A program made the position numbers and the translations under genes. DNA of 11,216 bases. Source: a virus. Shown piece after piece: positions 1-11,020 of this stretch (positions within the stretch are counted from its first letter, which is position 1; the number at the start of each line of letters is the position of its first letter). The notes beneath the pieces were generated by a model that worked only from the letters and a program-made list of their open reading frames with translations, did not search any database and had not been told where the DNA came from. The DNA lies in UHGV virus genome UHGV-0117334, one strand, 5' to 3'.

Positions 1-18
1 TGCGGTTACTCTGCTCAT
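1..18 (-). CDS. 5' end of an Rz-like i-spanin gene (only first ~6 codons in window; continues beyond the left edge)
   Basis: Minus-strand ATG at 16-18 overlaps the lysozyme stop (ATGA). Encoded start MSRVTA matches the N-terminus of lambda Rz as I recall it. Position downstream of holin and endolysin is canonical. Confidence 0.35.
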
Positions 19-515
19 TGCTGCCCCCACAAACAGACTTCACGCTCAATCTCACGGCGAGTCATCAGCCCTTTCCATTGCTTGCCGCCAGCATATGTCC
101 AGCGACGTAGTTGATCACATGCACCTTTGATATCGCCCTGGTTGATTTTGCGAAGAAGTGTCGATGTTCTGAAATTGCCTGCACCCACGTTGTAAACGAA
201 CGAGTAAAGAGCACCACGCGTTGTTTCCGGTATATCGACTTTGATGTACGGGTTAATTTGTCTGGCGACAGTAGCAAGGTCTTTATTCAGGAGAGCTTTG
301 CATTCTGCTTCGGTATACGTTTTACCGAGCATAATGTCTTTTCCTGTATGCCCGTAACATACAGTCCATACACCAACGATGTCTTTGTAGGGGTTATGTC
401 TCACACCTTCCAGACCATCGTTGCCGCTCGGACCAGAGATGAGCACAGATGCTATGGCAATAGCCCCGCCACCAATAGCAGTTGCGACAGCTTTGCGTAA
501 TGATGACTGCATCAT
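15..515 (-). CDS. SAR-type endolysin (T4-type / GH24 phage lysozyme)
   Basis: 166-aa ORF. N-terminal Gly/Ala-rich hydrophobic segment ([21 protein letters not shown]) is typical of a signal-anchor-release domain, followed by a GLEG...D...T lysozyme catalytic region. Closely resembles phage 21 R / E. coli RrrD-type lysozymes from memory. Start ATG overlaps the holin stop (ATGA at 512-515). Confidence 0.9.
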
Positions 516-784
516 ATTTCCTTCGGTGCTCTCTTTCCCAATTCACCAATAACCATCGCCGTGGCGGAAATATTATTGGCATCAGTTTTATCCAATATGT
601 CCTGCAATATCTTCGTGCGCTTCATCTGCTCGCGTTTATTGAGCCGGTATGTAAGTACACCGAGGATAATGCTGAACGCGACACCGATAATGAAGCCCCA
701 ATCCTGCAATGACAGGCTGGCAAAGAACGCAGTAAGACCAGCACTACCATAAGATGCGCTGCTGTATCGTTCATCCATCTTCAT
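512..784 (-). CDS. class II holin (S21-like pinholin candidate)
   Basis: 90-aa ORF directly upstream of and overlapping the endolysin. Two predicted TM helices ([10 protein letters not shown] and [16 protein letters not shown]), Met-Lys-Met dual-start motif, charged C-terminus. GAGGT Shine-Dalgarno 7 nt upstream of the ATG. Confidence 0.8.
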
Positions 785-879
785 ATCTCTTACCTCGCAA
801 TAGTTGCTGAGGTTTCGGCTTGGAAACTATACGGCGAGAAATAACCCCATCAAAAACGGCAGGGGAATATATTCTTCAG

Positions 880-2001
880 TTACTCAAATAACTTTTTCAC
901 TTCATCAACTGTCTGAAGATAACGTTCACCCTCAATCTCAATACCGATTGCCTGACGACCTAACTTCAGCGCGGCTTTAATAGTAGAGCCTGATCCCATA
1001 AAGAAATCGGCAACGATATCTCCGGGGCGGGAACTACTTTTTATAATATGTTCCATCATCGCTGCAGGTTTTTCACATGGGTGCTTGCCAGGATAATATT
1101 GCACAGGAGGAAACTCCCATACATCGGTATAAGGTACATCAGCAGTAACATGAAATGGGCGGCGCAAATTTTCATACTGAGCCTTCAAATCATCATACTG
1201 CTTCTTTACTTCCTCATAACGCAATTTCAGATCGCTATAACGCTTTTCATGTTCTGAATAATCAACATTAAAAGGATATGGACACGGGACACCGAGTGAA
1301 TCTGCCTTCCTGCGAAATAATTCGCATAGTTTATTAAAATCACTTAATGATGGAAGCCGCCACTGCGAATAAGAAAACCAGTGCGAACACATCTGCTTTC
1401 CTGTTGCTGAATTAATGTCTGCGGCTGATATATCTAACTGACGGCGAGCCAGCGAAAAAGCATCAATTAGTGGAGAAAAAATATTTTTTCTTAAATCTGC
1501 ACATTTTGAAGCATAACCTGACTGACCTTTAGCATAACCTGACGCGCCGTAATGCTCTGCAAATAATATTCTTTCAGTGGCAGGAAAATAAGCCCTTAAA
1601 CTTTCTTTATGACAACCGCGCCACATACCACTGGGTTTAGCCCAAATGATATGGTTCAGAACATTGAAACGGTCGCGAGTTAATAATTCAATTTTTGACG
1701 CAAGGCGAGAGCCGGTAAACATATACAGGCTGCCATTAGGGGCCAATATCCGCCAAAATTCTGCCAAAAATTCATCAATCCACCCCAAAAAGTCAGCATC
1801 GCTATCCCACTGGTTATCCCATGCGTTAGCCTTTACGCCGAAGTATGGTGGGTCTGTTGCAATCAAATTGACCGAGTTATCAGGGATGGTTTTGATAAAT
1901 TGCAGAGAATCTGCGCAAACGAGTTGCGCGCCATGAATATTAGTGGTTTTGAACATAGCTATTATTTTTTTGCCTGGGTAAGCTAACCCGGCGATGCGCA
2001 T
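880..2001 (-). CDS. orphan DNA methyltransferase, beta-class amino-MTase (N6-adenine or N4-cytosine)
   Basis: 373-aa ORF with DPPY catalytic motif near the N-terminus (LIATDPPYFG) and SAM-binding motif I near the C-terminus (DFFMGSGSTIKAA), the circularly permuted order of beta-class MTases. Carries a coiled-coil-like insert (EHEKRYSDLKLRYEEVKKQYDDLKAQYENLRR). No restriction endonuclease partner in the window. No obvious SD before ATG 2001; an alternative start exists at Met16 (~1956). Confidence 0.85.
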   Translation of the reverse strand: MRIAGLAYPGKKIIAMFKTTNIHGAQLVCADSLQFIKTIPDNSVNLIATDPPYFGVKANAWDNQWDSDADFLGWIDEFLAEFWRILAPNGSLYMFTGSRLASKIELLTRDRFNVLNHIIWAKPSGMWRGCHKESLRAYFPATERILFAEHYGASGYAKGQSGYASKCADLRKNIFSPLIDAFSLARRQLDISAADINSATGKQMCSHWFSYSQWRLPSLSDFNKLCELFRRKADSLGVPCPYPFNVDYSEHEKRYSDLKLRYEEVKKQYDDLKAQYENLRRPFHVTADVPYTDVWEFPPVQYYPGKHPCEKPAAMMEHIIKSSSRPGDIVADFFMGSGSTIKAALKLGRQAIGIEIEGERYLQTVDEVKKLFE

Positions 2002-2091
2002 CGCGGGTGGGCTTTAGGTTCAGCCTATAGCTCTGGCATGGGTTGACCGCAGGACAAGCTGCAACTTGTCCTGCGCCCACTTTTCAGGCAC

Positions 2092-2116
2092 AAAAAAACC
2101 GCCATAAAGGCGGCTT
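2092..2116 (-). terminator. rho-independent terminator candidate (minus strand)
   Basis: On the minus strand: GC stem CCGCC/GGCGG (with G-U closing pair), 5-nt loop, then a run of 7 U. Lies between the two-gene leftward operon (2704->2224) and the methyltransferase. Confidence 0.5.
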
Positions 2117-2201
2117 GTTGGCTGTTGGGTACAAAAAACCCAACTTAACAAAACAATAACTAAAAACCGTAATTTTGCCAAGCTTTTTCGTTTTTGTGCT
2201 G

Positions 2202-2219
2202 TGCGACCGTGGTCGCACA
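2202..2219. repeat. 18-bp palindrome TGCGACCGTGGTCGCACA, copy 1 of 3; SopB/ParB-type centromere-like site candidate
   Basis: Exact 18-mer shared with 6403-6420 (reverse orientation) and 8848-8865. Arms TGCGACC/GGTCGCA around a GT centre. Differs from the recalled F sopC SopB site TGGGACCACGGTCCCA by one base per arm. Intergenic, followed by TTTTT on the + strand. Confidence 0.6.
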
Positions 2220-2223
2220 GTTT

Positions 2224-2451
2224 TTAGAAAGTTGCCTGCTTATATTCATCGGTCAAAGAATATCGACCAGACCCGCTACGCTTTGCAACCCCAAAACAGA
2301 TCATCTGTTCGATGATAAATTCAACGGCAGCTTGACTCAAAAAACAGGCTTCGCTTAACTCTTTCAGGGAAATGCGTGGGTATCCACGCATAACACATTC
2401 CACACTCAGGGCCGCTTCAGTCATATTTCCACGAATTTCATTAATATTCAT
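2224..2451 (-). CDS. hypothetical small protein (75 aa), possible winged-helix DNA-binding fold
   Basis: ORF with GAGAGG SD-like sequence about 6 nt upstream of the ATG. Follows the upstream small gene closely (13-bp gap). No recognisable catalytic motif. Confidence 0.55.
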   Translation of the reverse strand: MNINEIRGNMTEAALSVECVMRGYPRISLKELSEACFLSQAAVEFIIEQMICFGVAKRSGSGRYSLTDEYKQATF

Positions 2452-2464
2452 AACGCCTCTCTAA

Positions 2465-2704
2465 TCAATCTTGAAACTGGAAATCAACATCAGCCATAAA
2501 GCGGTTCAACTCAGCCAGTTTTGGCCCCATAGTCCCAACTAAGCGACCAGCCAGTCGGTCTGCCAGGTTGGTACTGTTGAAACCATATTCCTTTTCGAAA
2601 CGTTCAACCTTCTGCCACAACTCATACAGTTCGTTAGCTATCTCCGCAACGTCGTCGCGCATTTTTTCGTTACCTTGATAATTCATAATATCCTCCAAAT
2701 TCAT
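2465..2704 (-). CDS. hypothetical small protein (79 aa as drawn; more likely 73 aa starting at the internal ATG 2686)
   Basis: ORF from the track. The internal ATG at 2684-2686 (Met7) is preceded by a strong GGAGG SD 5 nt upstream, whereas ATG 2704 has none. Divergent from the toxin-antitoxin operon. Confidence 0.55.
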   Translation of the reverse strand: MNLEDIMNYQGNEKMRDDVAEIANELYELWQKVERFEKEYGFNSTNLADRLAGRLVGTMGPKLAELNRFMADVDFQFQD

Positions 2705-2850: not shown

Positions 2851-3174
2851 ATGTTTAACGTGATAACCCACCCTGCAGCACTGGATGAACTGCTTGAACT
2901 ACCAGATGATTTGCGAGGTCGCATGACCAGATTAATTGAGCGACTGGAGAAGGAAGGCAACAAACTGAAGATGCCCCATAGCCGTGTAATAGGTGGAGGG
3001 CTTTTTGAACTACGAGTAGGGGATAAAAACATCGCAAGAACGCTGTACGCCTACGCGACTGGTAACGAAATTTATCTATTGCATGCTTTTGTCGAAACAA
3101 CGAAATATAACAAACAGAAAACACCGGTGAAGGCTATCGAAATCGCCAGAACTCGCCTGAAGGAGATGAACTGA
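2851..3174 (+). CDS. type II toxin, Gp49-like / HigB-like (RelE/ParE superfamily)
   Basis: 107-aa ORF with the family hallmark pattern ...RTLYAYATGNEIYLLHAFVETTKYNKQKTPVKAIEIARTRL. GGAGG SD 7 nt upstream of the ATG. Stop overlaps the start of the downstream HTH gene (TGATG). Confidence 0.8.
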   Translation: MFNVITHPAALDELLELPDDLRGRMTRLIERLEKEGNKLKMPHSRVIGGGLFELRVGDKNIARTLYAYATGNEIYLLHAFVETTKYNKQKTPVKAIEIARTRLKEMN

Positions 3175-3461
3175 TGAAAGCGAAAGGCATCCCGTTTAAC
3201 GAAGTAAAAGAAAAACTTCTCAACACTCCAGAAGCCATCAAAGGATATGAAGAGGCCGATAAAGAGCTGGAGATGGTCGAAATGTTATACGAAATGAGGG
3301 AAAGAGCAGGTTTAACGAAGTCAGCTCTGGCTGAACGAATGGGATTGCGCCCGTCAGCTATCAGCCGCCTGGAAAGCAATCCTTTAGGGGCAAGCATGAA
3401 AACTTTATCAAAATATGCCCAAGCATGCGGTGCAACGATTAATATTAATGCCGTCTATTGA
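3174..3461 (+). CDS. XRE-family HTH antitoxin (HigA-like) partner of the upstream toxin
   Basis: 95-aa ORF translationally coupled to the toxin. Helix-turn-helix segment LTKSALAERMGLRPSAISRLE. Toxin-first gene order is typical of HigBA-type modules. Confidence 0.8.
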   Translation: MKAKGIPFNEVKEKLLNTPEAIKGYEEADKELEMVEMLYEMRERAGLTKSALAERMGLRPSAISRLESNPLGASMKTLSKYAQACGATININAVY

Positions 3462-3504: not shown

Positions 3505-3723
3505 TCAATGATGCAAACACTCAACAGCAATAACTTGTTGGCAATTCTGAGCAATCTCCCGCGACATACTAACAAGTCGTGAAATCTCGCCAAGATGCAA
3601 GCTGGCTTCTGGAGAAGCCAGAGCAACGCTAACCAGATCCAAAACGGCGTCGATGTCTTTTAGGTTTGATCCGAGTTCTTCAAGAGTTGATACAGGTGCT
3701 TCAGTCATTGAATCTAATACCAT
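3505..3723 (-). CDS. hypothetical small acidic protein (72 aa); candidate SOS-controlled antirepressor
   Basis: ORF lies immediately downstream (minus strand) of a near-consensus LexA box and an operator-like sequence. No clear SD before the ATG, so the translation start is uncertain. Function inferred from context only. Confidence 0.4.
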   Translation of the reverse strand: MVLDSMTEAPVSTLEELGSNLKDIDAVLDLVSVALASPEASLHLGEISRLVSMSREIAQNCQQVIAVECLHH

Positions 3724-3773: not shown

Positions 3774-3791
3774 AAATTTTATAGCCAACTT
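3774..3791. promoter_or_regulatory. operator-like sequence related to the repressor/cro operators
   Basis: AAATTTTATAGCCA is identical over 14 nt (16 of 18 over the extended site) to 7601-7618 in the repressor/cro intergenic operator region. Confidence 0.4.
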
Positions 3792-6397: not shown

Positions 6398-6698
6398 TTT
6401 CTTGTGCGACCACGGTCGCACCCTCTCTGATTTCCAAGTAACGCTTAATCCAAAGATTTTCTATATGCTTATTACCTGGCTGATTTGATAAATACCAATC
6501 GGCAATTACAGACTGCTTATTACTATCTGGTCGTGTCCTGTAACCACAAGTTGGACACCAGATAACATATTCATTTCTTACCCCCGAATACCTTAATTCT
6601 GGCTTCGACGGTTTCCTGAACATAACTTGTTTACAAAGGCAGAATGGCACTTCCTGCCCGATGGCGTTTGATGATTTCACTGCGCTTCTCCGCCGCAT
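6378..6698 (-). CDS. hypothetical Zn-ribbon protein (CPTCGYR motif); start uncertain
   Basis: 106-aa ORF from the track. Its 5' 68 nt overlap the upstream 236-aa gene, and an internal ATG at 6623 would give 81 aa. The C-terminal residues ATVVAQ are encoded by the palindrome. Confidence 0.5.
   Translation of the reverse strand: MRRRSAVKSSNAIGQEVPFCLCKQVMFRKPSKPELRYSGVRNEYVIWCPTCGYRTRPDSNKQSVIADWYLSNQPGNKHIENLWIKRYLEIREGATVVAQENENNAI
6403..6420. repeat. 18-bp palindrome, copy 2 of 3 (reverse orientation); centromere-like site candidate
   Basis: TGTGCGACCACGGTCGCA on the + strand is the exact reverse complement of the 18-mer at 2202-2219 and 8848-8865. Overlaps the 3' end of the 106-aa ORF and the translation initiation region of the next gene. 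Confidence 0.6.
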
Positions 6699-7341
6699 TT
6701 AATAATGCAGTTCGATTTAAGCTCAGACATCGCGACTTAATTAAAAGCCAGCGTTCTTTATAATCTTGTCTCCAGCTATCAATAGATATATTCAGTAGAA
6801 AACTCAGATGCCTGTCCTGTTCTCTCTCATCAACTGCCTCAGCACACGTAAGTTCTGATTTAACCTGCTGTGCCGCGTAATAAATCAATTTCCGCATGGC
6901 TTTTTTCGTGGAGGCCTTCATTTTTTTAAAGCCGCCCCCCGAATGAGCAACCAGAAAATCAAGCCATAACCACTGACAAACAATCACATCATTGTTGTAA
7001 TCAGGCTTGCATCCGTAGCAATAATAAAGCCAGGCTGATTCCTCGTTATTCAACTGACCAATAGCCCTGCGCCAGCTGGCGCTCTGAAAATCAATATCAG
7101 TGAGCAACATTGATGATTGTTTAAATGTTTTCCCCTGGTGGAATCTAACCGGCTCAGCAGGAACGGACACTTCGTATGAGTTATCATCACCTACACTGAT
7201 TGACCGGACTGGTTTATTGTTAAAGCGTCCTGATCTGCCTAGACGCATCTGCTCAAGCTGGACCTCTAGGATGCCACGCTGGCGATAATGAATATCAGCC
7301 AATGCCGTGGATACGCAGCTGCGTATATACTCAAGCTCCAC
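6631..7341 (-). CDS. hypothetical protein (236 aa); Q-like late antiterminator candidate by position
   Basis: GTG start with AAGGAG SD about 10 nt upstream, immediately after cro. Several Cys residues (CYGC...C). Antiterminator role is inferred only from the cB-cro-Q gene order recalled for N15-like phages, not from a recognised motif. Confidence 0.6.
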   Translation of the reverse strand: MELEYIRSCVSTALADIHYRQRGILEVQLEQMRLGRSGRFNNKPVRSISVGDDNSYEVSVPAEPVRFHQGKTFKQSSMLLTDIDFQSASWRRAIGQLNNEESAWLYYCYGCKPDYNNDVIVCQWLWLDFLVAHSGGGFKKMKASTKKAMRKLIYYAAQQVKSELTCAEAVDEREQDRHLSFLLNISIDSWRQDYKERWLLIKSRCLSLNRTALLNAAEKRSEIIKRHRAGSAILPL

Positions 7342-7579
7342 GCTTACGGCTCTCCTTAATCGACTGCTTTACCCGCCGAGTTGTAAAGTCACTCTTCAGC
7401 TTGTAAGCAGTACGAACTTCAATATCACTTTGCCGCAATGAAGGAATCTCTCCAGCGGTTAACCATTGGTAAACAGCACCGGGTGTTACACCTACCCCAG
7501 CCGCTGCTTTTTCTACACTGCCAAAGTGGCGAATAAGTTCTTCTGGTTTCATGCGGTTATTATAAGCAATAAATCGCAT
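7331..7579 (-). CDS. cro: Cro-like HTH regulator
   Basis: 82-aa ORF divergent from the repressor. HTH segment FGSVEKAAAGVGVTPGAVYQWL is typical of Cro/YdaS-type proteins. An alternative start at ATG 7552 (MKPEEL...) lies just downstream of a TATAAT-like hexamer. Confidence 0.75.
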   Translation of the reverse strand: MRFIAYNNRMKPEELIRHFGSVEKAAAGVGVTPGAVYQWLTAGEIPSLRQSDIEVRTAYKLKSDFTTRRVKQSIKESRKRGA

Positions 7580-7580
7580 T

Positions 7581-7620
7581 TAAAGCCAGCTATAATAAAT
7601 AAATTTTATAGCCAGCTATA
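7581..7620. promoter_or_regulatory. operator region: two 14-bp palindromes TA(A/T)AGC-CA-GCTATA between divergent repressor and cro genes
   Basis: TAAAGCCAGCTATA (7581-7594) and TATAGCCAGCTATA (7607-7620) are spaced 26 bp centre to centre in the 64-bp intergenic region; the second ends 23 bp before the repressor ATG. Confidence 0.6.
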
Positions 7621-7643: not shown

Positions 7644-8240
7644 ATGAAAACACGAGGCGAACGACTGAAAGCACGCCGTTTAGAGATGAAGCTGACGTTG
7701 CGAGAAGTTGCTGAGGCTGTCGATATCTCTATTGCAGGCGTCCAAAACTTAGAACGTGGCGACGTAATGCCGTCACTGGAGATAGGTATTGCCCTGGCTA
7801 AGTGCTTACGCAAGCCAGTGCATTGGGTGCTATATGGGACAGAATATGACCCTGATCGCATTCCTGTTATTGGCACAACTGAAAGTGGGCCGGATGAAGA
7901 GTGGAAGCCGGGACAGGTTCCAAATACTGAGCGATTCCTGCCATTCATCAGCCAGCGCAATACTGTGTATGCGTTAACTATCAGCAATCTTACGCAGGGA
8001 AACTATCAGCCAGGCGATTTTCTCCTGGTCGATTCTGCGCTGGAACTGGTCCCCGGCGAGGATGTTCTGGTTCGTGATACTGCAGGAAATATCACTATCC
8101 AGCGCCTGGCCCGTTTTGATGATGAAAATTACTATCTGGATGGAACAAACTCACAACGCGCCATCTTCAGGAAAAGCGATCTTGAATTTGTTCACCAAAT
8201 AGTCGGAACGATCAAATCATTCATGGTTGAGGGTAGATGA
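7644..8240 (+). CDS. phage repressor, CI/CB-type (N-terminal XRE HTH, C-terminal beta-rich domain)
   Basis: 198-aa ORF. HTH segment LTLREVAEAVDISIAGVQNLERG. The C-terminal domain resembles the oligomerisation / peptidase-like domain of CI/LexA-type repressors, but I could not pick out a clear Ser-Lys catalytic dyad by eye. No SD before the ATG, so it may be translated from a leaderless or short-leader mRNA. Confidence 0.85.
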   Translation: MKTRGERLKARRLEMKLTLREVAEAVDISIAGVQNLERGDVMPSLEIGIALAKCLRKPVHWVLYGTEYDPDRIPVIGTTESGPDEEWKPGQVPNTERFLPFISQRNTVYALTISNLTQGNYQPGDFLLVDSALELVPGEDVLVRDTAGNITIQRLARFDDENYYLDGTNSQRAIFRKSDLEFVHQIVGTIKSFMVEGR

Positions 8241-8341
8241 CTTAATACGGGGTTTATTGTTTGCTGTAAATCTGGTTTAATGCAGGGCATATGTTCTGTG
8301 GGTTGACTCAGGTTACAGCAGCAGAAAAAAGACGAAAAAAA

Positions 8342-8370
8342 ACCCGAGTCGGCAAACTCGGGTCCTTTTC
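8342..8370 (+). terminator. rho-independent terminator downstream of the repressor gene
   Basis: A-tract, then 8-bp stem ACCCGAGT/ACTCGGGT with 6-nt loop, then CCTTTTC. Located about 100 bp after the repressor stop. Confidence 0.6.
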
Positions 8371-8485: not shown

Positions 8486-11020
8486 ATGACATTAAACGAT
8501 TTCTATGCGGATCGCTTTGGCAGCGATCCGTTCTCGCTAATTGAAGCAGCACGGGATGAAATAACCGAGCTGGCACAGATGGCTGGTATCAACTGGCCTG
8601 CCTGTTCCGACAACATCCAACTCAACCCTCGCGGGGGGGGTGAGCGTTACTCTTCATACAATAAAACATCTCCAGAAGCTCTCGAAAAGAGCCTGAAAGG
8701 ACGCGTAGAAATTTACTCCAGGCTGGAACACAGCAAAGGGATTGATTACCCGTTCATTAACTTCGTCCATAAAGGCAGCGATGCTGGCTCATGGAGCGGT
8801 TTCTCCTTCCTGTTTTCTGAATATCGCCGTGAGCAACAACGGAATAATGCGACCGTGGTCGCACAACCGGAAGAAGAACGGGCAAGAATAGAACGTCAGG
8901 CCGAAGCACGTCGTCGCCGTGAAGAACAAAAACGAATTAATGACCTGAAAAACAACCAAATGGACCATGAACGTTTGCTGGGATGGCTGGCATTCCACAG
9001 TGCTTGGGAACATGCTCCTGCAGAAGACGGCTCATGGCCATATGCGATTAAAAAAGGTATTCGTGACGTTTTTAATTCGTGTGATGTGCGTCGCGTGACC
9101 AGTCACGACAGCGCAAAATGGAGCAGGGGGCCAACCACGTATATGGCTATCCCTCTGGCTCACCTGGACGGTCGTTACGATGGTCGTATTGTTGGTTGGC
9201 AGAGAATCGACAAACAAGGTGGAAAATACCAGACCAGCGCCGTAACCAGCGGCGATTTCGTCGGTGCCTGCTTTGTTATCGGTGAGCTGAAAGGGGCGCA
9301 AAACATCGCTGTTACAGAAGGTTTTGCTACTGGTGCATCCATCTGGCTTGCCACGAAAAAAGATAAACGCTTTGACGCTGTGGTTGTCGCTGTATCCGCT
9401 AACAACATGGTTCATGTTGTGGAACAACTGGTAAACATGTACCCGGCGGCAAAAATCACCTGCGCACTGGATAATGACCGGAAATCAGCTACAGAAGGAA
9501 AAGGGAATACCGGCCTGCGGACTGGCTATGAAATCTTATCGAAATTCAACGATGTCCGCTGCGTCTATCCAACTTTTGAAGACGATCCGCAAATGGAGTG
9601 CAGTGACTTCAACGACCTGCACAAACTACGTGGACTTCGTGAAACAGCACGTCAACTGTTTGCAACTGCAAACCGCCTGAAAACTGGCACTGATTTGCTA
9701 TCTCTGACGCTCAACCGCCTGAAGACAATTAAGCGGGATAACCGTCGTACTTTTGCCAAAGAGCTGCTGAGAGCGGTGGATATTGGCATGCTAACCTGTC
9801 CGGTTCCTAACAGTCCGTCAGACTTATTTAACATGTTCTGCATCGTTCTGCGTGAAATGGGGCTGGAAAATATCTATCGCGCTACGGTAAAAGACCACAT
9901 TGCCCGTCGCCTGAATAAAAAGTGCCGTATTGCCCAGGCTCCGCGCTCATTCAGCGAACGCATAACTGATCCCAATAAACGTCCTCAACATATCACCTAT
10001 AAGCGTTTTGAAACTTCGGTAATGACCGATGACGTCCTGAAGTACGTGCAATCACTACAGGGGATAGTCATCGTCCGTGCTGGTATGGGTTCCGGCAAAT
10101 CTACTGGATTGTTACGACCGTTAATGCATAGCTCAGAACGTGGTATCTCTGTTGCTCACCGTGTCTCCCTTATTGGTGGCCTGTGGGAAATGATGACAGA
10201 AGGAAAAGGTGTAAAAGCCGATATCCTGCACTATCAGGACCCTGGCTATCAGGAAATGGCTCCATACGCCAGTAAACTGACCATCTGCATAAACTCGATT
10301 GTTAAAAACTGCTGGCAACCGTTGATGCGCCAGCACGACTATTTTGGCTTTGACGAGGCCACACAAGGGCTACGTGCCGTTCTTTCCGGTCGGGCTATGG
10401 AAAACCCGGTGGCTGTATTCCATACGCTAATTGACGCGCTGGCCAGAACGGAACAACACCCAATCATGGTGGATGCTGATGCGAACGATCTGCTGGTTGA
10501 CCTGGCTGAACTGGCTATGAAACGCCGTGAAGAACTAGGTTTACCGGCATGGCTGCAGATCCACGTAATTGAATTACCTGTTGATGTTCGCAACCGCGAA
10601 ACAGGTGAGCCAATCCGGGTTTTTTATACAGAAAAAGATCGCATTATGACCGAGGTGGTGAAAGCTGTATCGGATGGCGAAAAAATCATGTTGGCCACCG
10701 ACAGCTCCACCTTTGCAGAAGATGTGACAGCCACCCTGAGAATGCATTTTCCTGGTAAGAAATTTCTGTGTGTAAACCAGAAAAGTAAACAGGATGAAGA
10801 AGTCGATGCCTTTACCAACCAGCCAAAAGTAATGGTGATGAAATACGATGGACTGATCTACAGTCCGTCAATTTCCTCCGGGGTGTCATTTGAGAAAAAA
10901 CATTTTGACCGTCATTTCGGCATGTTCTGCGGTGAAGTTGTGCCCAGCGACGCAGTGCAAATGCTACGCCGCGACCGTACAGCAAAAGAATTTATTATCG
11001 GCTTTGAAAGATACGGATAA
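8486..11020 (+). CDS. repA: replication protein: Toprim-type primase fused to a P-loop helicase (RepA-like primase-helicase)
   Basis: 844-aa ORF. Toprim motifs (IAVTEGFATGASI with catalytic Glu; CALDNDRK DxD motif). Walker A (GMGSGKST) and Walker B-like (YFGFDEATQG) in the C-terminal half. Same strand as and downstream of the repressor, as recalled for repA in N15-like phage-plasmids. Gene symbol is by architecture only. Confidence 0.85.
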   Translation: MTLNDFYADRFGSDPFSLIEAARDEITELAQMAGINWPACSDNIQLNPRGGGERYSSYNKTSPEALEKSLKGRVEIYSRLEHSKGIDYPFINFVHKGSDAGSWSGFSFLFSEYRREQQRNNATVVAQPEEERARIERQAEARRRREEQKRINDLKNNQMDHERLLGWLAFHSAWEHAPAEDGSWPYAIKKGIRDVFNSCDVRRVTSHDSAKWSRGPTTYMAIPLAHLDGRYDGRIVGWQRIDKQGGKYQTSAVTSGDFVGACFVIGELKGAQNIAVTEGFATGASIWLATKKDKRFDAVVVAVSANNMVHVVEQLVNMYPAAKITCALDNDRKSATEGKGNTGLRTGYEILSKFNDVRCVYPTFEDDPQMECSDFNDLHKLRGLRETARQLFATANRLKTGTDLLSLTLNRLKTIKRDNRRTFAKELLRAVDIGMLTCPVPNSPSDLFNMFCIVLREMGLENIYRATVKDHIARRLNKKCRIAQAPRSFSERITDPNKRPQHITYKRFETSVMTDDVLKYVQSLQGIVIVRAGMGSGKSTGLLRPLMHSSERGISVAHRVSLIGGLWEMMTEGKGVKADILHYQDPGYQEMAPYASKLTICINSIVKNCWQPLMRQHDYFGFDEATQGLRAVLSGRAMENPVAVFHTLIDALARTEQHPIMVDADANDLLVDLAELAMKRREELGLPAWLQIHVIELPVDVRNRETGEPIRVFYTEKDRIMTEVVKAVSDGEKIMLATDSSTFAEDVTATLRMHFPGKKFLCVNQKSKQDEEVDAFTNQPKVMVMKYDGLIYSPSISSGVSFEKKHFDRHFGMFCGEVVPSDAVQMLRRDRTAKEFIIGFERYG
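8848..8865. repeat. 18-bp palindrome, copy 3 of 3, inside the primase-helicase coding sequence
   Basis: TGCGACCGTGGTCGCACA identical to 2202-2219. Encodes the residues ATVVAQ of the replication protein. Confidence 0.6.

Follow-up and report, generated by a model that had tools for sequence, protein, structure and literature searches.

The spacer between gp51 and the methylase gene of an N15-like telomere phage: a probable late-gene control region followed by a candidate leader RNA

The promoter p52 is reportedly the late promoter of phage N15. Ravin, Rech and Lane, in a 2008 report in J Bacteriol 190:3538, are said to have reached this conclusion from Northern blots and lacZ fusions; the same work reportedly found that a remotely encoded Q homologue antiterminates at p52, that terminator sequences lie between p52 and the first open reading frame (ORF; the abstract reportedly speaks of two terminator-like sequences), and that the inverted repeat IR3, acting in cis with SopAB and IR2, raises late expression. 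At the lambda promoter pR', the hexamer AACGAT is the sigma-dependent pause element (SDPE) and the loading site of lambda Q. Here, we compare with these systems the spacer between gp51 and a DNA methyltransferase (methylase) gene in an 11,216-nt stretch of viral DNA, UHGV virus genome UHGV-0117334 (the whole stretch is called the window below). Read along the minus strand, positions 2220-2089 of the window probably constitute a late-gene control region, the counterpart of the N15 IR3-p52-terminator region, at which a polymerase pause, a Q antiterminator and SopB would all act.

By its sequence, the window is part of a Ravinvirus, an N15-like telomere phage (a linear plasmid-prophage). Escherichia phages YDC107_1, classified as Ravinvirus (the N15 genus), and PhiR46_1 match 98% of the 11.2-kb window at 97.7-97.9% identity (97.7% for PhiR46_1), and the more distant matches are N15, phiKO2 and Klebsiella telomere phages. 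The spacer itself aligns with N15 41124-41400 (gene51-gene52) at 83.5% identity over 276 bp, with homologues of gp51 and of the methylase as its flanks, and on this comparison 2089-2220 (minus strand) is the orthologue of the N15 gene51-gene52 spacer. On the homologous bases, the N15 record annotates a -35 at 41162-67, a -10 at 41185-90 and a rho-independent terminator at 41229-50, and the phiKO2 record gives, in the same order, a 'putative late promoter', a 'terminator' and a 'putative plasmid partitioning site'. The original prediction, made from the window sequence, had proposed a hairpin-rich, Q-dependent late promoter/terminator module. The orthology with N15 and phiKO2 supports the module, with one correction: the strong hairpin at 2048-2075 that had been counted into it lies outside the cassette and is helix P2 of a methylase leader RNA. 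The elements in question are the following.

gp51 to methylase, 267 bp: the spacer under study
2199-2220: 22-bp palindrome CTGTGCGACC-GT-GGTCGCACAG, 4 bp past the gp51 stop codon; homologue of the N15 SopB-binding site IR3
2182-2198, minus strand: A-tract-rich spacer CACAAAAACGAAAAAGC from the palindrome to the -35; the N15 and phiKO2 lineages both conserve AAAAYGAAAAAG
2176-2181, minus strand: -35 TTGGCA, found by scan; identical to the N15-annotated -35 and invariant in the N15 and phiKO2 lineages
2153-2158, minus strand: -10 TATTGT, found by scan, 17 bp after the -35; homologous to the N15-annotated -10 TATCTT
2139-2147, minus strand: -10-like hexamer TAAGTT plus GGG, about -1 to +8
2124-2144, minus strand: 5'-proximal RNA hairpin (GUUGGGU / ACCCAAC), 7-bp stem and 7-nt loop, about +3 to +23; -10.4 kcal/mol, z = -3.6
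2116-2092, minus strand: intrinsic terminator T1 (scan and fold), stem AAGCCGCC/GGCGGUUU, loop UUUAU, U7
2038-2080, minus strand: leader helices P1 (2080-2076 with 2042-2038) and P2 (2075-2048)
1957-2037, minus strand: rest of the ~130-nt leader, comprising single-stranded AAGCCCAC, P4 (a hairpin, 2007-1987) and A-rich sequence as far as the methylase ATG (1956-1954)
6631-7341, minus strand: Q antiterminator, 236 aa; PF06323, E = 2e-84 over 228/236 residues
6402-6421: second centromere-type palindrome, downstream of Q, at the N15 IR2 position
8847-8865: third centromere-type palindrome, within repA, at the N15 IR1 position

An exact-pattern scan of viral contigs and of phage and plasmid records recovered 47 distinct sequences of the region, and 21 non-redundant representatives (<97% identity) from the N15, phiKO2, PY54 and further lineages were compared (the relatives referred to below). 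The arrangement as a whole is conserved in all 21 and is thus beyond chance. The predicted promoter, TTGGCA-N17-TATTGT, is present at 2181-2153 on the minus strand and matches the bases annotated as promoter in N15. Throughout the relatives, a TTGnnA -35 lies 17 bp ahead of a TAnnnT -10, and the -10-like element starts 5 nt after that -10; this spacing is kept although the hexamers and the spacer vary by lineage. Within the element, TA(A/T)G(T/C)TGG(G/C), the bases T1, A2, G4, T6, G7 and G8 (numbered from its start) are invariant, that is, 6/8 positions of TAAGTT/GG. The layout of the window, TTGGCA-N17-TATTGT-N5-TAAGTT-GGG, matches that of lambda pR', TTGACT-N17-TAAATT-N6-AACGAT-GGG, and because of this match and of the invariance of the element, TAAGTT-GGG can be proposed as the site at which the sigma-dependent pause would occur and a Q82-family protein would load. 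The general scheme of Q loading at a pause element is described in PMC9388147.

Compared more broadly, the window and lambda pR'-SDPE/QBE-tR' (QBE, Q-binding element) share a sigma-70 promoter, a -10-like hexamer with GGG within 5-6 nt, an intrinsic terminator and, behind it, lysis and morphogenesis genes. They differ in that lambda Q adjoins its promoter whereas the window Q is remote, in that lambda Q lacks sequence similarity to the Q82 family, in the length of the terminated RNA (194 nt in lambda vs about 55 nt in the window) and in the plasmid centromere site that flanks the window promoter. The suggested likeness to a lambdoid pR'-qut-tR' arrangement therefore stands for the layout of promoter, -10-like element and terminator and fails for Q, which lies upstream at a distance of 4.45 kb, not adjacent as in lambda. 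The correspondence with the N15 IR3-p52-terminator region extends to the position between gp51 and methylase, the -35 TTGGCA, the palindrome core, the terminator stem, TAAGTTGGG and a remote Q of the same family; the N15 region differs in its -10 (TATCTT, vs TATTGT in the window) and in its 5' hairpin, the stem of which contains G-U pairs where that of the window is a perfect 7 bp. The spacer at 2182-2198, to judge from its A-tracts, is possibly an UP-element-like stretch or a bend.

T1 lies between the promoter and the late genes, so transcripts from the promoter must pass it. The minus-strand intrinsic terminator predicted at 2092-2116 was borne out by the scan, by the fold and by its invariance in the relatives. 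Its stem (2116-2096) has 8 pairs, 5 of them G-C, and a loop of 5, with U7 at 2098-2092 (-12.9 kcal/mol, z = -2.9); the CCGCC/GGCGG stem and T7 are invariant in the 21 relatives, and the loop varies. Given a +1 near 2146, an RNA stopped at T1 would measure about 53-56 nt. The predicted 7-bp-stem hairpin at 2124-2144 is likewise present, and a hairpin at about +3 to +25 can form in 21/21 relatives, with stems that vary (GGG:CCC, GGC:GCC/GCU) and include G-U pairs, a pattern of change that fits an RNA of late-transcript sense. As to its role, pause stabilisation or 5'-end protection are speculation. The 62-nt segment that holds the 5' hairpin and T1 folds with z = -5.0.

Three further observations concern the same stretch. 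In an N15-like contig (L048:6288-6350), the promoter and the -10-like element are missing together with the 5' half of T1, and the sequence in their place is unrelated and may be one end of a mobile element; this contig keeps the leader and the methylase and may be a natural promoter-less variant. After T1 the window reads GTGCCTGAAAA, and TTGCCTGAAAT likewise follows the terminator of contig L135. The ORFs of the spacer (53, 46 and 44 aa) were rejected as coding sequences, since they span the promoter, terminator and hairpins and the indels of the relatives are not multiples of three; the 53-aa ORF (2020-2181), listed as a hypothetical protein in PhiR46_1 (14790-14951), is probably spurious.

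The palindrome copy and its T5 run, which had also been predicted, are present at 2199-2220, the T5 following on the plus strand. The sequence GTGCGACCNNGGTCGCAC occurs three times in the window (2201, 6404 and 8847) vs 0.00 expected, and in the phiKO2 record additional partition sites are annotated behind Q and within the replicase gene, which matches 6402-6421 and 8847-8865. At 2201-2218 the core reads GTGCGACC-GT-GGTCGCAC, and the N15 IR1-IR4 oligonucleotides share the core GTGCGACC-NN-GGTCGCAC (PMC7205306 Table 4); IR3 is the copy ahead of the N15 late promoter. The shared IR core and the partition-site annotation of phiKO2 uphold the suggestion of a centromere-like site beside the promoter. 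Five copies are found in PhiR46_1, which also encodes ParA/ParB, and several copies of one inverted repeat together with ParA/ParB in a close relative fit a SopB/ParB centromere site with predicted SopB binding. The F sopC and N15 IR1-IR4 sites share with those of the window a 16-18-bp inverted repeat of the (T/G)G(G/C)GACC-NN-GGTC(C/G)C(A/C) type; the window sites are dispersed as in N15, unlike the clustered sopC repeats of F. Four dispersed sites have been described in N15, compared with the five of PhiR46_1 (L166), in which two more perfect copies, at 17793-17810 and 18013-18030, stand directly after the lysis genes.

The palindrome lies upstream of the promoter in 21/21 relatives, and its type depends on the lineage, being either the N15 type (GTGCGACC) or the F/PY54 type (TGGGACC). 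The distance from its centre to TAAGTT is 51, 62-63 or 94 bp in the 21 loci, so that the steps, 11 and 32 bp, are whole helical turns. The change of specificity, with the helix face towards the promoter retained, speaks for a functional contact, and this phasing in the compared sequences points to a transcriptional role besides partition. On the plus strand, the palindrome and T5 also fold well as a candidate terminator; no plus-strand gene enters them, and N15 is without the T-run.

The 236-aa protein that the original prediction had put forward as a Q candidate proved to be an antiterminator of PF06323 (the Q82 family, PMC9388147) that shares 66.9% identity with N15 gp40. The Q gene ends at 6631 and the -35 stands at 2181, a gap of about 4.45 kb with roughly 13 ORFs; in N15 the gap, from the end of Q at 35747 to the -35 at 41162, is about 5.4 kb, so that Q is likewise remote. 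All of the lineages that bear the cassette have a Q gene. A sequence search of Q against solved structures returned nothing related, and Q is thus not assignable to the lambda-Q or the Q21 fold.

The sequence elements, their conservation, their orthology with N15 and their gene context are direct observations, and the mechanism that we consider probable would run as follows. A sigma-70 promoter (TTGGCA/TATTGT) would start transcription at about base 2146, and TAAGTT-GGG would hold the sigma-containing polymerase in a promoter-proximal pause, by analogy with lambda pR'. Without Q, the polymerase would stop at T1 and release an RNA of about 55 nt. After induction, Q of the Q82 family, made from the early cro-Q operon, would load onto the paused complex, and the Q-modified polymerase would pass T1 and the structured leader into the methylase, holin, endolysin and Rz genes; in the joined-cos form, transcription would go on to reach the terminase, head and tail genes. 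SopB at the phased palindrome would, by analogy with N15, stimulate the late promoter and so link the partition proteins to late transcription.

Several points weigh against this account. The -10 TATTGT is imperfect. Neither promoter-like sites (14 vs 18.6 expected in shuffles) nor terminator-like sites (12 vs 10.8) are enriched in the window, so that the scan proves nothing by itself and the weight lies on conservation. The regions after the Q82-family Q genes of lambdoid PhiR47_2, Gifsy-1, PPompW and phiES15 share no motif with the window promoter, and to our knowledge no QBE consensus exists for Q82-family proteins, the undefined QBE leaving none recognisable at the window promoter. The gp50-gp51 transcript would be expected to end at a terminator in the position of T1, which may thus serve both roles. 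Finally, we infer pausing, Q loading and dependence on Q and SopB in the window phage from comparisons between sequences. An explanation that takes up some of these points holds the elements to be unrelated neighbours: T1, on the same strand about 110 nt past the gp51 stop, would end the gp50-gp51 transcript, and the promoter would be constitutive or otherwise regulated, with no part for Q, whose gene is 4.45 kb away instead of adjacent and for which the promoter offers no recognisable binding element. We judge this improbable, as T1 is downstream of the promoter and has to be crossed by its transcripts, the spacing of promoter, -10-like element and T1 is fixed in 21/21 relatives, the layout copies that of lambda pR', a Q gene is found in every lineage with the cassette, and readthrough dependent on Q is reported for N15. 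A late-gene control region under Q thus remains the preferred reading of 2220-2089.

Conservation in the region peaks beyond T1, at 88% identity to N15 vs 64-82% for the neighbouring genes. The predicted 11-bp-stem hairpin at 2048-2075 is present, with 11-12 bp (CGCAGGACAAGU/GCUUGUCCUGCG); with its flanks it reaches -25.4 kcal/mol (z = -5.4), and 0/200 shuffles were as stable. The whole 194-nt leader folds with z = -5.3. The equivalent of 2080-2038 folds in 21/21 relatives into a 5-bp P1 (RUGGG/CYYRU) that encloses a P2 of 9-13 bp with a 4-6-nt 3' internal loop. RNAalifold gave a poor consensus on a MAFFT alignment of whole leaders, because the stem lengths differ by lineage; the helices were instead assessed by folding each sequence separately, by arm-swap controls and by counting pairs on a re-anchored alignment. 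The same P1+P2 fold was found in 27/27 diverse leaders with 26 different P2 arm pairs, the P2 hairpins averaging -14.7 kcal/mol in native form vs -5.9 with arms swapped between sequences. In the alignment, 88.7% of cells are paired vs 29-43% with partners slid by 1-3 columns, both-side changes occur in 67 cells vs 11-27 in the slid controls, and the covariation score is 0.457 vs 0.05-0.15; 0/500 shuffles reached the observed values. P1 varies solely by G-U-compatible changes, a pattern that fits an RNA read in the late-transcript sense better than a structure in DNA. P4 is likewise present in 27/27 leaders (20 different arm pairs), and in every one of them 126-135 nt separate P1 from the first start codon. 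For GUGGGC, long-range pairing with a distal GCCCAC was considered and rejected: it shows A-C mismatches in L012, L047, L135 and L150, and preference was given to the proximal CCCAU, with which pairing is kept via G-U changes. The methylase start to which the leader runs is ATG 1956, in agreement with the annotations of YDC107_1, phiKO2, PY54 and two plasmids and with the alignment, not ATG 2001 of the longest ORF (373 aa), which is over-extended.

A protein search with the methylase identified homologues at 51-72% identity in other viral contigs. Many of them share the leader (P1, P2, single-stranded AAGGCCCA, P4 and the A-rich stretch) without the N15 promoter, and some are also without T1; beyond window 1957-2083, leader loci are L135:1368-1503, L116:1205-1333, L108:1373-1503 and L107:1374-1503. 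In the L135 type, the leader follows the stop of a gp51-like ORF, which in turn lies behind a Q21-family Q gene (PF06530) that has a promoter and a terminator of its own, in L140 and L148 it stands behind a different promoter and terminator, and in the L116 type a Com-family zinc-ribbon ORF (PF10122) lies between leader and methylase. The AT-rich methylase homologues of the L118 type are without the leader. Since the leader accompanies methylase genes behind unrelated cassettes, the hairpin at 2048-2075 belongs to a methylase-linked 5' untranslated region (5'UTR), not to the pR'/tR'-like cassette.

The reverse assignment would make all of the hairpins, 2048-2075 included, one multi-terminator or attenuator block (tR'-like), with the 11-bp hairpin as a second terminator. 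The strength of that hairpin (-25 kcal/mol) and its position 17 nt past the U7 of T1 are in its favour, as are the two terminator-like sequences reportedly mentioned for N15. However, no U-tract follows the hairpin, the next bases being GGUCAACCCAUGCC, and it is thus not an intrinsic terminator; it recurs with P1, P4 and the fixed start distance of 126-135 nt at methylase and com-methylase genes that have neither the N15 promoter nor T1; and one leader stands directly behind a gp51-like ORF, downstream of a Q21-family cassette. We regard a single block as quite improbable and retain the division into a cassette ending at T1 and a leader belonging to the methylase.

What the leader does can be said only tentatively. 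It may well be a structured 5'UTR motif of ~130 nt, dedicated to one phage methyltransferase family or to com-methylase operons, that moves between late cassettes and acts as a cis-regulator or as a binding site for a phage protein, a reading that we put forward with less than even confidence. A candidate partner would be the gp51-like winged-helix protein, which often precedes the leader. Its most likely role, inferred with low confidence, is cis control of the translation of methylase (or com) or of mRNA stability. A search of the whole window against Rfam 15 (E <= 1) returned no family at the gathering threshold and only hits of chance level (AgrB, 27.3 vs 40 bits; ctRNA_pGA1, 22.9 vs 45), and, judged by its absence from Rfam 15, the leader is apparently undescribed.

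Phage Mu offers a partial parallel among the leader-bearing relatives. The mom gene of Mu, which does not encode a methyltransferase, has a hairpin that sequesters the Shine-Dalgarno sequence and is opened by the Com zinc-ribbon protein. At L116:1331-1500 (also in L117, L150, L156 and L158), a TTG-start methylase lies behind the Com ORF, and a GUGCC/GGCAC hairpin after that ORF, read by eye, encloses AGGAGG; by analogy, the methyltransferase looks to be under translational control in the style of Mu com-mom. The Com-family ORF and the hairpin around AGGAGG are thus features of the L116-type relatives and not of the window, which is without a com gene and whose leader directly abuts the methylase ATG. 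We know of no described counterpart of the ~130-nt leader in Mu. At L135:927-1100, in a contig of lambdoid type, the Q21-family Q is followed by TTGACT..TAAAGT, the direct repeat GTCCG-N4-GTCCG and a terminator, and then by the gp51-like ORF, the leader and the methylase.

A third explanation, that the short transcript of about 55 nt (5' hairpin and T1) is a trans-acting small RNA with the late-promoter role secondary, is very improbable: the 62-nt segment folds well (z = -5.0) and both hairpins are conserved, but no Rfam family scores above threshold for the transcript, no target has been identified, and the pause element explains the conservation of its 5' part. We know of no function of its own for lambda 6S RNA, the analogous short RNA.

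The remaining genes of the window follow the N15 order, cB / cro-Q ... gp50-gp51 / methylase-holin-lysozyme, with small early genes in series between Q and the gp50-gp51 region.

8486-11020, plus strand: repA
7644-8240, plus strand: cB repressor
7331-7579, minus strand: cro
2465-2704, minus strand: gp50
2224-2451, minus strand: gp51
880-1956, minus strand: DNA methyltransferase, the first late gene, 358 aa; PF01555, E = 1e-46
512-784, minus strand: holin (Pfam holin match)
15-515, minus strand: endolysin (Pfam Phage_lysozyme match)

The methylase and lysis genes that had been placed downstream of the module are thus found there, with methylase, holin and endolysin on one strand; in PhiR46_1, a complete relative, the same strand runs on into the Rz, terminase, head and tail genes. 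PhiR46_1 also encodes telL/telR, ParA and ParB, the par genes falling outside the window. The YDC107_1 record (CP025712.1, L165) contains inverted duplicates of the protelomerase, antirepressor and repA regions and is without parAB; it looks like an assembly run through a hairpin telomere, not a true genome structure.

Other sites in the window have N15 parallels. A RelE/ParE-like toxin (107 aa) and a helix-turn-helix antitoxin (95 aa) are encoded at 2851-3461 (plus strand), on the opposite strand within the early operon, and are homologues of N15 genes 49 and 48. The cB-repA gap contains, at 8335-8370, a strong hairpin of 16 pairs flanked on either side by T-runs; N15 and phiKO2 have a (bidirectional) terminator annotated at the homologous site. 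In the cro-cB gap, the position of the CB operators in N15, two tandem 26-bp repeats (AATAAAT...TTTAWAGCCAGCTAT) lie at 7568-7619, and a 17-bp copy of the repeat, AAATTTTATAGCCAACT, at 3774-3790, upstream of a small ORF (3505-3723), may be an extra operator. The methylase-holin gap (785-879, minus strand), where N15 annotates a terminator, holds only a weak hairpin (CCCC..GGGG, then TTATTTCT), and the scan flagged a promoter-like site at 853-826 in the same gap.

The arrangement of promoter, terminator and partition site was already known from N15 and from the N15/phiKO2 annotations. To it the present comparison adds the helical phasing of the partition site, an invariant -10-like element as a candidate loading site for Q82-family proteins, and the methylase leader RNA; of these, only the leader could be new, and it is a clean covarying RNA candidate. 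TAAGTT-GGG provides a concrete candidate pause and loading site for the Q82 family, the only one among the Q families for which neither a structure nor a defined mechanism of loading is available (PMC9388147). The phasing across lineages gives independent support to the coupling of partition proteins and late transcription reported for N15, and the finding as a whole supports the view that the N15 scheme, in which late genes depend on a Q encoded at a distance and the late promoter adjoins a partition site, also operates in a common E. coli plasmid-prophage.

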